Shown: one piece after another, positions 25,192 through 28,329 of the stretch | How the letters are laid out: each line of letters starts with the position of its first letter | Numbering within the stretch: the first letter of the stretch is position 1 | Sequence record: PQ287651.1 | Direction: 5' to 3' (one strand) | DNA: 64,000 nt | From: Pseudomonas phage HHBS18_1 | The notes under the pieces: generated by a model | Databases searched by the model: none | What the model saw: the letters and a program-made list of their open reading frames with translations, nothing else | What the model was told of the DNA's origin: nothing | Translations under genes and position numbers: made by a program

Positions 25192-25500
25192 TCAGCGAAC
25201 AACTTGATAAACTTCATCGAACAGGTCATCAAGCTTCTGGATAACCTTCTTAGCCAGCTTCTTGCGAACTTTGTTAGCCTCTGGGCCGGAATGGAGTAGC
25301 TTAATATCGGACGCGTTGCCCCAGTCCATCGCCCCGTTGTCGAACAGCACTTTAACATTCAGATGCATCGAGCCCTCGTCAATATCGACAACTACGCCGG
25401 TCATCCGAGCGTTGGTCTTTTCGAAGGTCGGCCTCGGAATGTCTATGTCCAGACTGCCAACCATAACAACCTGCCCTTTCTTAACGTCAGATAGTTCCAT
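25192..25500 (-). CDS. hypothetical protein (last gene of minus-strand cassette)
   Basis: 102 aa ORF, RBS AAGGAGG upstream on minus strand. Confidence 0.45.
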   Translation of the reverse strand: MELSDVKKGQVVMVGSLDIDIPRPTFEKTNARMTGVVVDIDEGSMHLNVKVLFDNGAMDWGNASDIKLLHSGPEANKVRKKLAKKVIQKLDDLFDEVYQVVR

Positions 25501-25510
25501 TAAAACCTCC

Positions 25511-25831
25511 TTAATCTAACCTCATTAGTGTGTTGAACTGATGCCTCAGAGACTTAAAAGCCTGCGGCCCGTCGTCTTCTGCTCCTTCATGAATATGATG
25601 AGCGATTAAGTGTATCAATCCTCTGTCTCCTAGTAACAAAGAACTAGGAATTTCTTTTATCCAAGCCACAAAGCAACAGAAGTGTAGAACCTCCGGCATG
25701 GAAGCCTTGAAGCTGGAATCATCCAGCTTCGATAGGCGTTCATACGTAGCTTTAAGATCGGGATAGCTTAACTGATATGTAGCATCTTCGTCAATATGCT
25801 GGTCCCCTCTAACTACATACTGTAAGCTCAT
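25511..25831 (-). CDS. hypothetical protein
   Basis: 106 aa from ATG 25831 (RBS GAAGGTG); His-rich segment LIHLIAHHIHEG. Confidence 0.45.
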   Translation of the reverse strand: MSLQYVVRGDQHIDEDATYQLSYPDLKATYERLSKLDDSSFKASMPEVLHFCCFVAWIKEIPSSLLLGDRGLIHLIAHHIHEGAEDDGPQAFKSLRHQFNTLMRLD

Positions 25832-25832
25832 A

Positions 25833-26645
25833 TTACACCTTCTTTCCGCCTTCTGCAAGACGTGCCTCTCGCTTATGGTCCGCACGGGTCATGTTGTACT
25901 CGATCTTCTCGATGATAGCCCCTGCAACATCCAATTCCCGGACATTCGCATAGTCCATGATACGAATGATAGCGTCGGCCAGTTCCACCTCTTCCATCTT
26001 CCGCTCTGGCAAGTGATCGTCCATCAAATCCTTACGGACGCCTTCAGCAGCTTCCGCAATTTCAGTGGTAACGAGCATCAGCATATGCAGAGCATCACGT
26101 TTAATCGGCTCGCCTGTGACCAGATCGGTGTTCCACTTGCGGTTAACAACCTCAAGACCAGTCATCATTTTGTTAAAACCGCTAACAAACTCGAAGACGG
26201 ACTCTCGTTCGAATAGCTCGCCGAACGTCGGCTCTTGATCCTCAACAATTGCAGTGTGGAAAGGCCACTCCATCCAAGTATCATGGAATTTTTTGATAAG
26301 CTCTTGTTCGTCAATGTACGAGAAGCAACTCTGACCACAAATCTTATCGATAACTTCAGTCCCGTAGTCTCCGTCCCAGTATCGTTTATCAATGAGCTTA
26401 GGGTCTATTCTAAGGGAAGTGCTTCCAACATCCCCCCACGATCTCCAGCCTACATGATTGTCACTGAAGTACAGCAAGAGGGCCAGATTGTCCCGCTCTT
26501 CCTGCTCCTGATTCTCCATAGCTATAACAAACGCTGGTACTTTGTCTCCACCTATGCCCTGAGAATAGACAAAGGAGCCTAAGTGGGTAGTTTCCCGGTT
26601 AGATGGGCGATGAGCTTCCTCGATATGATCTTTAACTTTACTCAT
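25833..26645 (-). CDS. MazG-like nucleotide pyrophosphohydrolase domain protein with about 170-aa N-terminal domain of unknown function
   Basis: 270 aa from ATG 26645 (RBS GAGGAGGAAGAAG); C-terminal MazG signature LMLVTTEIAEAAEGVRKD ... ELADAIIRIMDYA (EExxE ... ExxD). Confidence 0.55.
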   Translation of the reverse strand: MSKVKDHIEEAHRPSNRETTHLGSFVYSQGIGGDKVPAFVIAMENQEQEERDNLALLLYFSDNHVGWRSWGDVGSTSLRIDPKLIDKRYWDGDYGTEVIDKICGQSCFSYIDEQELIKKFHDTWMEWPFHTAIVEDQEPTFGELFERESVFEFVSGFNKMMTGLEVVNRKWNTDLVTGEPIKRDALHMLMLVTTEIAEAAEGVRKDLMDDHLPERKMEEVELADAIIRIMDYANVRELDVAGAIIEKIEYNMTRADHKREARLAEGGKKV

Positions 26646-26793
26646 TAACTTCTTCCTCCTCACAGAACATTTCAAAATAACAATCGATACAAGTTAGCAT
26701 GCCGTCGTCGCTTACAACCTCCTCGGGAGGGAAGTTGTTCCCGCAACATTCACACACAACTCGATCAACCTCCCCGCATCCCCAGTAAGCCAT
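26638..26793 (-). CDS. small zinc-ribbon protein (51 aa; CxC..CC ... CxxC)
   Basis: MAYWGCGEVDRVVCECCGNNFPPEEVVSDDGMLTCIDCYFEMFCEEEEVNE; stop overlaps MazG start (ATGAGTAA); below 60-aa cutoff of ORF track. Confidence 0.45.
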   Translation of the reverse strand: MAYWGCGEVDRVVCECCGNNFPPEEVVSDDGMLTCIDCYFEMFCEEEEVNE

Positions 26794-26795
26794 AT

Positions 26796-27932
26796 TTACT
26801 CCTCCTTCAGAAGATACTCATTGCTAATAACTTTGAAGCTGAAGTCTCGGCTCATGCTTTTGAAAACCAAGCCTTCCCGGTACTTACCGTTCAACGCAGA
26901 CTCGCCACTAGCCATTTTAATTACTAGTTGCATGTCTTTTGGAACGCCTACGTCCCACATGTACACCGGCACATGTTTGACCGTCTCACCACCCAACTGG
27001 TTCAGCGTATTCAGAATGGCAAGACGCTCCGCTGGAAGACAGTAACGACTGTCCGAAATGTTGTAGATATCGTACACATAGTATTCCGGTTTGTCAACTC
27101 CCTCGAAGTTGCCTTGAATATTTGGTGCAACCAGTTCGCCTTGAAGGGCAATATTCAGACCGAAATACCGGAGACGTTCACCAAGATTAAGCTCTTCTGC
27201 CATCGCAGTGAAGTGATTGGAGTCTTTCTTAATCACACGCTTCCAGCCCCGACCCTTGAAGAAGTTCTTGATAGCAGTGAAGAACCCGATCTTCTCGTCT
27301 TCTAGACGGAAACCGACATTTCGAGACGCCACGCCTACTTCTCCGTCCTTGTGCCAGATAGTGAGGGACGAACCGTCCAATTTGAATGTCACTTCAAACT
27401 TCTCGCCCTTCTGATGAGCCTGATCGTAAGCCATCTGAATATTCTGTACGCGAGCCTGATCCGTCTTCGGGATGAAGTTGGGGAACCCAAGCTTGGAAGT
27501 GCCAGTCCGGCTGCCCTTGTTGCCGCCATTGATAGCTGCCTGTTCAGATGGCTTTACATACTTCAGGATGCCCATTCGATCGGTAACATCTTCGTCCACT
27601 TTCGGCTCTGGACTACCGGCTGAATGAACAGGCACGATCAGTCCTTGGCTAAGCTCTTTTCGAAGCTTCATGGTCTTGATTCGAGAATATTCCTTTCCAT
27701 CCCGCTCAACCATATTACGACCACGTAGGAATTCAAAGATAGGGTTATCTACAGGAACCATGGAATCCACTTCAATGTAGATTGCCAGATCGCCAGCCTG
27801 ATACTCACCTCGTTTGATTACGCACTGCCAACCACCAACAAGCGCCAGATCGAGGCTGTCAGCGTTAGGATGGGTCTTCACATCGTCGATACGCACCACT
27901 CGGGCTAGTACGCGGTCTTGGGAATTACTCAT
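26796..27932 (-). CDS. ATP-dependent RNA ligase, Rnl5-type architecture (N-terminal tRNA-binding OB/Myf-like domain + nucleotidyltransferase domain)
   Basis: 378 aa, RBS AAGGAGG; motif I KLDGSS, motif IV EGLVFK, motif V FKVIS; N-terminus VKTHPNADSLDL...GGWQCVI..G.Y..GDLAIYIEVDS resembles EMAP/Trbp111/CsaA tRNA-binding OB fold. Confidence 0.65.
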   Translation of the reverse strand: MSNSQDRVLARVVRIDDVKTHPNADSLDLALVGGWQCVIKRGEYQAGDLAIYIEVDSMVPVDNPIFEFLRGRNMVERDGKEYSRIKTMKLRKELSQGLIVPVHSAGSPEPKVDEDVTDRMGILKYVKPSEQAAINGGNKGSRTGTSKLGFPNFIPKTDQARVQNIQMAYDQAHQKGEKFEVTFKLDGSSLTIWHKDGEVGVASRNVGFRLEDEKIGFFTAIKNFFKGRGWKRVIKKDSNHFTAMAEELNLGERLRYFGLNIALQGELVAPNIQGNFEGVDKPEYYVYDIYNISDSRYCLPAERLAILNTLNQLGGETVKHVPVYMWDVGVPKDMQLVIKMASGESALNGKYREGLVFKSMSRDFSFKVISNEYLLKEE

Positions 27933-27963
27933 ATGTTATCCTCCTTGTTTGAAAATTGGTATA

Positions 27964-28329
27964 TTACTTGTTAAACCAACCGAGGTCAATAGCTCGTTCT
28001 AAGGCTCGTAGCAGATTCTCAGCATCTAGAAGATCACGGATCGGCATCCAACTCCCACTATTCCCCGGTAAGCCATCTGCGATGTACACAGGTACGTCAG
28101 TATACTCGCTCTTTTCAAGTCTGCAAGCACAGTCTACACTATCTCCGAAGACAATCTCCCTGACCTCTGCCGCCTCGTTTCGAATATCGATCTTCACGGT
28201 GTTTCCTCCTGTTTTGTTGAAAGTCGTTGTATTCTGGACGGATTCCTCTGCTGTGTCAATAGCCTTGACAAGAAAATAATCCGTGGTAAAGTGGGTGACC
28301 TGCTGGAGAGAAATGTCCACGTCACTCAC
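27964..28329 (-). CDS. hypothetical protein (first gene of minus-strand cassette; GTG start)
   Basis: 121 aa open frame filling the space between the divergent region and the ligase gene; no ATG alternative. Confidence 0.35.
   Translation of the reverse strand: MSDVDISLQQVTHFTTDYFLVKAIDTAEESVQNTTTFNKTGGNTVKIDIRNEAAEVREIVFGDSVDCACRLEKSEYTDVPVYIADGLPGNSGSWMPIRDLLDAENLLRALERAIDLGWFNK

Follow-up and report, generated by a model that had tools for sequence, protein, structure and literature searches.

An accessory minus-strand operon of Pakpunavirus phages encoding an Rnl5-type RNA ligase and a MazG-like fusion protein

RNA ligases of the Rnl5 type, represented by DraRnl of Deinococcus radiodurans and NgrRnl of Naegleria gruberi, require the 3'-OH side of a duplex nick to be RNA and do not discriminate between RNA and DNA at other positions, as described by the Shuman laboratory (PMC5397189). 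DraRnl seals duplex nicks with 3'-OH ribonucleotides in an ATP/Mn2+-dependent reaction (PMC5397189). The family is known in bacterial viruses, and its physiology has been called 'uncharted' save for a DNA-repair phenotype in Deinococcus (PMC5397189). The MazG-like enzymes include a phage protein, Atd1, that depletes (p)ppGpp and weakens the toxicity of TIR-STING and retron-TIR (10.1101/2022.06.09.495361). A ligase of the first type and a MazG-like protein are encoded side by side in a block of six minus-strand genes at 25192-28197 of the DNA analysed here, a 64-kb stretch of Pseudomonas phage HHBS18_1 (PQ287651.1) that is referred to as the window.

The region is a conserved accessory operon of Pakpunavirus, a genus of Pseudomonas aeruginosa myophages of the PAK_P1 type. 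A megablast search with positions 25000-28500 matched 123 phage records, all of them Pseudomonas phages of this genus and including PAK_P4, JG004, Zigelbrucke, PA10 and EPA1, with identities of 80-95% and at least 80% of the query covered in 118 of the 123. The DNA identity of the window to PAK_P4, JG004 and Zigelbrucke is 90-95%, and window coordinates equal those of PAK_P4 minus approximately 758. The six genes are gp35-gp40 of PAK_P4, where five are annotated as hypothetical proteins and one as a 'putative RNA ligase'. EPA1, Zigelbrucke and Adele also label a 'nucleoside triphosphate pyrophosphohydrolase' or 'MazG-like' protein, and the annotations of PAK_P4, YS35, EPA1 and Adele agree on the locus.

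The initial annotation of the window had taken these genes for a single RNA-repair or counter-defence module, in a combination not known to have been characterised. The latter is true of experiments, none of which were found in the searchable literature for any gene of the operon. It is not true of annotation, since the genes are already public in more than 120 genomes of a heavily sequenced genus and their families are known. For the Pakpunavirus Adele, a 2025 paper already proposes tRNA repair, by nick sealing, for the ligase and hydrolysis of alarmones or nucleotides for MazG (PMC12846349). The MazG-like protein of that phage, PaAdele_096, may cleave hyperphosphorylated nucleotides or viperin products according to the same paper (PMC12846349). 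The reading favoured here, at a probability of about 0.6, is that of an accessory operon with two evolutionarily separable enzymes and four small proteins that are restricted to the genus or to phages.

The ligase and the MazG-like fusion protein

The 378 amino acid protein encoded at 26796-27932 on the minus strand has, on its sequence, the clear architecture of an Rnl5 nick-sealing RNA ligase, with an N-terminal OB domain followed by a nucleotidyltransferase domain. The OB domain matches PF21189 (PHA02142 OB-fold) over residues 9-102 (1e-29) and the adenylyltransferase domain matches PF09414 (RNA_ligase, 1.6e-17); no further Pfam domains were found. The protein scores 157.5 bits against the TIGR02306 equivalog (RNA_lig_DRB0094), for which the cut-off is 151.15, over profile positions 5-341 of 341. 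It aligns with NgrRnl (PDB 5COT) over residues 9-376 of 378 (E=1.6e-62), the N-terminal OB region being aligned to NgrRnl residues 7-196. Motifs I (K184, KLDGSS), III (QGE266), IV (E353, EGLVFK) and V (K367) are aligned between the two. K184, D186, the motif Ia SRN, QGE266, E353-G-x-V and K367 are invariant in eight phage Rnl5 homologues of 35-83% identity.

The initial annotation is therefore borne out in its motifs I, IV and V and in its choice of Rnl5. It is also correct on the C-terminal OB domain of DNA ligases, which is lacking as is an Rnl2-type C-terminal domain; the NgrRnl alignment stops two residues from the end of the protein, and the profile searches returned Rnl5 and not a DNA ligase with a C-terminal OB domain. 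The OB domain had been described as a tRNA-binding, Myf/EMAP-like fold, and this has to be given up, with no tRNA_bind match reported by Pfam at E<=0.1 and the domain belonging to the Rnl5-specific PF21189. A basic insert of approximately 40 residues (210-249) lies between motifs Ia and III. It is absent from NgrRnl and from the homologues of Aeromonas, Sinorhizobium and Limnohabitans phages, and is present in a longer form in the Otagovirus and PhiPA3 homologues. Rnl5 genes are common in phages, being found in 345 phage records and in at least 575 viral contigs.

The second enzyme is a 270 amino acid fusion (gp37), which as a whole is phrog_6945 of the PHROGs database. Its C-terminal part, residues ~136-270 (25833-26240, minus strand), is, as judged from its sequence and its predicted structure, a MazG-like all-alpha nucleoside triphosphate (NTP) pyrophosphohydrolase whose subfamily the Pfam models do not cover. 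Residues 177-280 of the 280 amino acid open reading frame (ORF) that begins at a TTG, equivalent to 167-270 of the 270, match phrog_5658 'pyrophosphatase' (2.4e-49). At least 846 homologues of the C-terminal 135 residues were found in a large protein collection, and most of those listed are stand-alone proteins of 116-140 amino acids. Among those listed, many of the proteins from JGI bear the name 'NTP pyrophosphatase (non-canonical NTP hydrolase)', and Pfam domains were precomputed for none. When a profile of 43 homologues was compared with the PDB, the matches were MazZ (7ody, 0.0026), DCTPP1 (0.025) and the pyrophosphatase 4qgp (0.063). The domain itself gave no match to the MazG-type Pfam families even at E<=10. 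It is because of this last result that the protein is placed in the MazG superfamily but outside its curated families, with phrog_5658, the JGI names and the MazZ and DCTPP1 profile matches as the sequence support.

The metal-binding acidic motif of the superfamily, ExxE(xxE)...ExxD, is intact (E195/E198/E201 and E219/E221/D224). In 114 sequences E195, E198, E201, E221 and D224 are invariant, as are several basic residues, and E219 is nearly so. With a deep alignment, AlphaFold2 models residues ~150-270 at a predicted local distance difference test (pLDDT) score of 78-98. A Foldseek search with this model matched the Sulfolobus solfataricus MazG 1vmg (probability 0.91, TM 0.76, root mean square deviation 2.8 A), with DCTPP1 (probability 0.80), YpjD (TM 0.68) and Escherichia coli MazG as other matches; the E-values for the whole model are poor because the N-terminal domain is unmodelled. 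Among the viral models of BFVD, phage MazG-like proteins were matched at deviations of 1.4-2.2 A, one of them at 1.5 A over 122 columns. Matches of the fusion profile to cullins (E ~0.015-0.07) were judged to be spurious. The same MazG subfamily is fused to unrelated domains in other phages, as in a 450 amino acid Klebsiella phage protein and in a Colwellia phage 9A protein recorded as 'glutaredoxin 3'.

The remaining ~135 residues of the fusion (26241-26645, minus strand) are an orphan domain, predicted to be beta-rich and then helical. The initial annotation had the MazG-like C-terminus right and the proportions wrong, having given 100 and 170 residues for what are two parts of approximately 135 each; the boundary was set by homology to the stand-alone family members. 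It had also left the N-terminal domain unassigned, and this stands. Neither Pfam nor the PDB gave a match and AlphaFold2 produced no confident fold for it (pLDDT 31-59), while a model of the full fusion from the 10 genus sequences alone reached a pLDDT of 35. A search of 5.8 billion proteins with residues 1-171 found 10 clusters, all of Pakpunavirus, at 65-98% identity. Within the genus, residues 138-270 are almost invariant and the N-terminal domain is variable. A weak match to the Tudor structure 2hqx (probability 0.23) is not evidence for a Tudor fold, given the low pLDDT of this domain.

Gene neighbourhoods and the role of the operon

The case for two separable enzymes comes from the surroundings of Rnl5 genes in other viruses. 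The 80 best viral Rnl5 loci were taken with 5-kb flanks and their ORFs were searched with profiles of the MazG domain, the fusion N-terminal domain, the 106 and 102 amino acid proteins, and the zinc ribbon. Genes of the cassette were found within 5 kb of Rnl5 at none of the 78 loci from outside Pakpunavirus, the only matches being the two Pakpunavirus loci. In the sister genus Otagovirus, the ligase is in the same slot, where an inverted block separates the lysis genes from the plus-strand genes that come next. It is accompanied there by two small proteins of other kinds and by a CxxC...CxxC mini-protein that also differs, and MazG is more than 20 kb away. KPP10, PhiPA3, Aes508, phiM7 and DC31 have yet other Rnl5 neighbours. 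The adjacency of ligase and MazG is a peculiarity of one genus, Pakpunavirus, and the neighbour evidence argues against a specific ligase-MazG unit.

In the Limnohabitans phage DC31 (contig L011, 1573-3517), the gene for a 297 amino acid protein, in which a ligase motif I (KLDGIR) is present, overlaps Rnl5 at its start and a primase/helicase gene follows directly, so that two ligase genes appear to lie back to back at the replication module.

When neighbours from viral contigs were clustered over 56 ligase groups (85% identity), the commonest were an AAA_33 kinase (11 groups), a Cys-phosphatase of the DSP/PTP type (9) and a T4 Rnl1-type ligase (8). These were followed by a metallophosphoesterase (7), a DUF2828/DUF7788 protein (6), NAMPT (5) and NT5C (4). 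A further cluster, found in 3 of the 56, is macro-domain-like by sequence and has no Pfam match. In viral contigs L021-L100 the Cys-phosphatase neighbour has 178 amino acids and the DUF2828/DUF7788 neighbour has 470. Phage Rnl5 genes thus seem to be set in a neighbourhood that recurs and combines RNA repair with NAD salvage. Their association with end-healing and sealing enzymes supports a general role of phage Rnl5 in the repair of RNA ends.

The functions that are common beside Rnl5 elsewhere are also encoded by PAK_P4 at gp141-gp151, in another minus-strand block, and none of them lies within the window. This second block covers approximately 20 kb at 69-89 kb and is followed by 12 tRNA genes. 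It encodes a macro-domain protein, NAMPT, phosphoribosyl pyrophosphate synthetase, an AAA_33 kinase, an Rnl1-type RNA ligase, a metallophosphoesterase, an HD-domain protein and a DNA ligase. No kinase or phosphoesterase was found in the operon itself, those of PAK_P4 being gp146 and gp151, ~50 kb from it. The proposal that a different class of ligase is paired here with MazG in place of the Pnkp of T4 does not hold, as the relatives have the T4-like set of Rnl1-type ligase, AAA_33 kinase and metallophosphoesterase elsewhere in their genomes.

A Cys-rich mini-gene tightly coupled downstream of the ligase is seen at five of the eight closest viral loci (>=45% identity) and at 7 of 78 overall, against a background of 0.8% of small ORFs. 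Otagovirus M5.1 has one such gene and phage EM has two in tandem. This is suggestive of a recurrent partner of the ligase within a clade whose loci are not phylogenetically independent. It is not the case that a zinc ribbon always follows Rnl5; this is confined to the Pakpunavirus/Otagovirus-type clade and is absent from KPP10, PhiPA3, Aes508 and phiM7.

In the reading of separable enzymes, transcription of the operon is probably carried out by the host RNA polymerase and would run from the sigma-70-like site near 28.25 kb to the hairpin at 25.15 kb. As a homologue of DraRnl and NgrRnl, the ligase would be adenylylated on K184 and would seal 3'-OH/5'-PO4 duplex nicks in which the 3'-OH strand is RNA. 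Its likeliest role in infection would be the resealing of nicked structured RNA, such as the stems of tRNA or rRNA. It would in this way complement the separate healing-and-sealing set (AAA_33 kinase, metallophosphoesterase and Rnl1-type ligase) found elsewhere in the genomes of relatives. The MazG enzyme probably hydrolyses a nucleotide, its putative substrates being alarmones of the (p)ppGpp type or else (d)NTPs that are non-canonical or made in defence, and the fast-evolving N-terminal domain may target or regulate it. The zinc ribbon, whose gene is translationally coupled to that of the ligase, may assist this enzyme as an accessory factor. RNA repair for the ligase is plausible, as is a nucleotide-signal or nucleotide-pool role for MazG. 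What the data show are the family memberships, the anatomy of the operon, its taxonomic distribution and the absence of a conserved link between ligase and MazG; the substrates, the timing and any part in counter-defence are inferred.

PAK_P4 relies on the host RNA polymerase and breaks down ~90% of the mRNA of its host, in which the RtcAB operon for RNA repair is induced (PMC5563952). The Toprim tRNase P2-OLD leaves 5'-P/3'-OH ends, and T4 Rnl1 and Rnl2 each resealed single anticodon-stem nicks without an end-healing enzyme (PMC12445682). By analogy, and by inference only, this would be a rationale for a nick-sealing ligase located apart from healing enzymes.

Several points weigh against this reading. 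DraRnl, the sole Rnl5 with a known physiological role, acts in DNA repair and not in RNA repair (PMC5397189), and the MazG of a cyanophage is inactive on (p)ppGpp (cited in PMC12846349). The PAK_P4 RNA-seq paper classes gp1-34 as 'late' and gp80-124 as 'early' and does not mention gp35-40 (PMC5563952); no timing for these genes is given in the main texts of the PAK_P4 and PAK_P3 RNA-seq papers (PMC5563952, PMC4933390). The tight coupling and strict gene order in ~120 genomes could reflect cooperation within the genus, although conservation in one genus cannot separate cooperation from shared descent.

A role in DNA replication and repair is a rather unlikely alternative, although it fits part of the data. 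Here Rnl5 would seal 3'-ribonucleotide nicks ('ribo-patches' or primer remnants) in phage DNA, which could arise as massive RNA breakdown raises rNTP pools, and MazG would cleanse the pool of (d)NTPs. The two would then serve the fidelity of replication, from a position immediately before the replication module. In DraRnl the requirement for RNA is limited to the 3'-OH end, with DNA tolerated in the remaining strands, and cells that lack the enzyme are slow to reassemble their genome after irradiation (PMC5397189). The ligase gene is directly or a few genes upstream of primase/helicase in KPP10 and DC31, with the DNA-ligase-like gene overlapping its start in the latter, and in Aeromonas phage Aes508 it is between gp32 and frd/td. 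The dCTP pyrophosphatase DCTPP1 and MazZ are among the nearest solved relatives of the MazG domain. However, the commonest neighbours of phage Rnl5 are the RNA end-healing and sealing enzymes (AAA_33 kinase, phosphatases and Rnl1) and not replication proteins, and the relatives already have a DNA ligase (PAK_P4 gp156).

Joint action of all six proteins in one integrated counter-defence or RNA-repair module, as first proposed, is unlikely. In such a module a host nuclease would cut RNAs and the ligase would reseal them, with recognition of the substrate or inhibition of the nuclease falling to the zinc ribbon and small proteins. The MazG fusion would remove a nucleotide signal or poison that the same or a linked defence system makes. 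The genes do share one promoter and one terminator, with junctions of -8 to +31 nt, and their order is kept in ~120 genomes and in the divergent phage EM, where the MazG fusion is 46% identical. The 102 amino acid protein, the zinc ribbon and the N-terminal domain of the fusion are fast-evolving and have tandem copies in some relatives, as arms-race genes often do, and one distant homologue of the 106 amino acid protein is encoded directly upstream of an Rnl2-type ligase. However, three other informative contexts of the 106 amino acid family have no ligase, and the MazG subfamily is mostly stand-alone or joined to unrelated domains in other phages. The absence of the other cassette genes from all 78 non-Pakpunavirus Rnl5 loci and the separation of ligase and MazG in Otagovirus also tell against it. 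The part of this interpretation that is supported is RNA repair as a role for the ligase, from the kinase, phosphatase and Rnl1 neighbours of Rnl5 in other phages.

A counter-defence unit specific to Pakpunavirus is somewhat less probable still. Toprim-type nucleases (OLD, PARIS and Gabija-like) would nick tRNA stems, leaving 3'-OH/5'-P ends that the ligase, together with the coupled zinc ribbon, would rejoin directly. End-healing is not required at nicks of this kind, which would account for the distance of the ligase from the kinase and phosphoesterase. Breakdown of an alarmone, or of a nucleotide made in defence, would fall to the MazG fusion, and the fast-evolving 102 amino acid protein and fusion N-terminal domain would bind variable host factors or act as decoys for them.

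That the operon is dispensable cargo kept by linkage, with some genes inactive and no role in any condition tested, is very improbable: all but the two enzymes are genus-restricted or lack an assignable function and the 106 amino acid copy has lost the Glu of its family motif, but the catalytic residues of ligase and MazG are intact and invariant, the MazG domain and 106 amino acid protein are 91-100% conserved in the genus while adjoining sequence varies, and the genes are kept in all 122 genomes matched by the accessory-gene searches.

Because phage Rnl5 travels with RNA end-healing and NAD-salvage genes and not with MazG, the two enzymes are best tested separately. The physiological role of Rnl5 is uncharted outside Deinococcus (PMC5397189), though many phages encode it. 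Pakpunaviruses are therapy candidates that can be edited with CRISPR-Cas9, and a PaoP5 deletion has been published (PMC13083879), so that knockouts on defence-carrying P. aeruginosa are feasible. The value of the locus is as a tractable test of phage Rnl5 function, together with a few orphan, fast-evolving small proteins.

Small proteins, operon anatomy and flanking genes

The protein encoded directly after the ligase (gp38, phrog_7461; 26638-26793, minus strand) has 51 amino acids and, as the initial annotation had recognised, is by its sequence a zinc ribbon (CxxC-17-CxxC) with predicted metal binding. C14, C17, C35 and C38 are invariant in seven sequences, which include the two tandem paralogues of phage EM. 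Its Pfam matches to LIM and DUF7685 are below the cut-offs, and it was found only in Pakpunavirus, at 48-97% identity.

The 106 amino acid protein (gp36, phrog_7083; 25511-25831, minus strand) is 91-100% identical across the genus and belongs to a wider phage family. An exhaustive HMMER search found 113 representative homologues (clusters) of ~100 amino acids in an unannotated family, for which Pfam and PDB relatives were not found; matches of its profile to Kelch were judged to be spurious. H50, K59, D69, G71, H74, H78 and R96 are conserved. The family consensus SDxGxIHELxHL is HExxH-like, and the window copy reads HLIAH, without the Glu. The three other proteins of the operon had been said to be free of motifs, which these His, Asp and Lys positions contradict. 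In one 35-kb metagenomic contig (L012, 5001-6260) a family member is directly upstream of an Rnl2-type RNA ligase, with DNA ligase, metallophosphoesterase and NT5C genes nearby, and other members are near ArdA-like and AlkB-like genes. The family was rejected as a constant partner of nick-sealing ligases, on one contig with and three other informative contigs without a ligase.

The 102 amino acid protein (gp35, phrog_2827, 6.9e-45; 25192-25500, minus strand) is encoded by the most variable gene of the operon. Matches by tblastn were to 122 Pakpunavirus records only, at 44-99% identity, and a word-indexed homologue search found only three clusters. A DUF7258 match is weak and below the cut-off. 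The protein is labelled an 'SH3 domain protein' in Adele and is SH3 or Tudor-like according to some depositors, a fold that was not confirmed. The idea that it and the N-terminal domain of the MazG fusion are SH3/Tudor-like paralogues was discarded, with nothing found by BLASTP and a probability of 0.9% in hhalign. In phage EM the 102 amino acid gene has three tandem paralogues.

The first gene of the operon (gp40, phrog_4794; 27964-28197, minus strand) encodes 77 amino acids from a GTG at 28197 with an AGGAGG at 28205-28210. The 121 amino acid ORF given for it by the initial annotation is too long. Relatives annotate 77 amino acids, the PHROG match spans only residues 43-121, the GTG has its AGGAGG 7 nt upstream, and the promoter-like site TTGACA-17-CAGAAT falls within the longer ORF. 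The gene has two tandem paralogues in EPA1 and Adele, and JG004-type relatives have an insertion of ~270 bp at the same spot. Over its C-terminal part (DAENLLRALERAIDLGWFNK) the protein is weakly similar to KPP10 gp036 (40% over 35 amino acids, E=0.002 in a small database), which is encoded 2 kb upstream of the KPP10 Rnl5 (L006, 1427-1531). The tandem copies in relatives are the two 77 amino acid genes of EPA1 and Adele and, in EM, two zinc ribbons and three copies of the 102 amino acid gene (L003, 4972-5476; L007, 2915-3470; L013, 3824-4152 and 5309-6212). Together with the identity ranges of 44-99%, these copies resemble the rapid turnover of host-interaction genes.

All six minus-strand genes are in the ORF list of the region and are tightly coupled, as had been described. 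The 77 amino acid gene and the ligase are separated by 31 nt containing a AAGGAGGA ribosome-binding site on the minus strand, the ligase and zinc ribbon by 2 nt, the MazG fusion and 106 amino acid gene by 1 nt, and the 106 and 102 amino acid genes by 10 nt, with the zinc ribbon and MazG fusion overlapping by 8 nt. GC skew is negative across 26-28 kb. The remaining long minus-strand ORFs of the window are antisense shadows of plus-strand genes, and real minus-strand coding in it is confined to this block. The description of the block as the only one on the minus strand is accurate for the window and not for the genome, in view of the 69-89 kb block of PAK_P4. One unannotated minus-strand ORF of low complexity (38843-39907, 354 amino acids) is the antisense shadow of the plus-strand gene 38861-39865 (PAK_P4 gp59), and should not be called as a gene.

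The candidate sigma-70-like promoter (28231-28259, minus strand, TTGACA-17-CAGAAT), a consensus match only, is where the EPA1 record annotates a promoter upstream of EPA1_89. At the other end of the operon, a terminator-like hairpin of 12 bp with one bulge and a GAAA loop (25148-25176) folds on both strands, at -23.6 kcal/mol on the plus strand (z -3.7) and -21.2 kcal/mol on the minus strand (z -4.6), with no shuffled sequence folding equally well. This agrees with the bidirectional terminator of the initial annotation. The hairpin begins 4 nt after the end of the plus-strand lysis/spanin gene (25144) and lies 16 nt from the last stop of the operon (25192), and it is marked as a terminator in the PAK_P4 (plus strand) and EPA1 (minus strand) records. 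A simple terminator scan did not pick it up. The sole match in an Rfam scan of 24800-29000 was a chance snoRNA (E=0.36), and there are no tRNA genes in the window.

Past a divergent region of ~440 nt, the first plus-strand gene (28637-28834, 65 amino acids) encodes a member of the T7 gp5.9 RecBCD-inhibitor family (PF25708, 1.2e-13, above the cut-off; phrog_6234 'host RecBCD nuclease inhibitor', 5.4e-12). A promoter-like site, TTGACA-17-TAGAGT, is present at 28577-28605. The gene at 29621-30010 (plus strand, 129 amino acids) is part of this divergent operon and not of the minus-strand cassette. The initial annotation had read it as an HAD phosphatase. All four HAD motifs, DYDET, VVTAR, AK and VDDNP (D17xD19xT21, T49, K77 and D93-D94), are kept in Pakpunavirus and Otagovirus homologues. 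It had no Pfam, NCBIfam or single-sequence PDB match, and its profile gave weak matches only, to a capless HAD protein (2obb, 0.11), a Cof-type HAD (0.29) and phage NT5C (hhalign, P=0.0012), so that it is a candidate HAD protein.

Comparison with known systems

The same operon is present as gp35-gp40 of PAK_P4, PaAdele_094-099 of Adele and EPA1_83-89 of EPA1, with identical gene content and order and DNA identities of 90-95%. The window differs in having a single copy of the 77 amino acid gene, where EPA1, Adele and the JG004-type phages have two. Its variable genes are of different alleles, the N-terminal domain of the MazG fusion being nearest to that of PA10 and the 102 amino acid gene nearest to that of EPA1.

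The MazG domain shares the four-helix-bundle fold and the ExxE...ExxD acidic motifs with 1VMG, DCTPP1/RS21-C6, MazZ (7ODY) and Atd1. Atd1 is the phage counter-defence precedent, and the domain is likened to it by class only. Unlike these enzymes, it is in a separate phage and metagenome subfamily (phrog_5658, with one BFVD match named 'NTP-PPase_u5') and is joined to a genus-specific N-terminal domain.

As in T4, which has Pnkp with Rnl1 and the nick sealer Rnl2, an ATP-dependent RNA ligase is encoded by the phage, and by analogy its nick specificity is expected to be Rnl2-like. The complete genomes of relatives also hold an Rnl1-type ligase, a kinase and a phosphoesterase. The difference from T4 is that no healing enzyme is in the operon, the healing set of relatives being ~45-50 kb distant and outside the window. 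The ligase is also of another clade than T4 Rnl2, with the Rnl5 N-terminal OB domain in place of the Rnl2 C-terminal domain. The two-domain build is that of DraRnl (DR_B0094) and NgrRnl, with motifs I, Ia, III, IV and V kept. The window ligase differs from these two in being encoded by a phage and in carrying the 210-249 insert, and its activity is predicted from this likeness.

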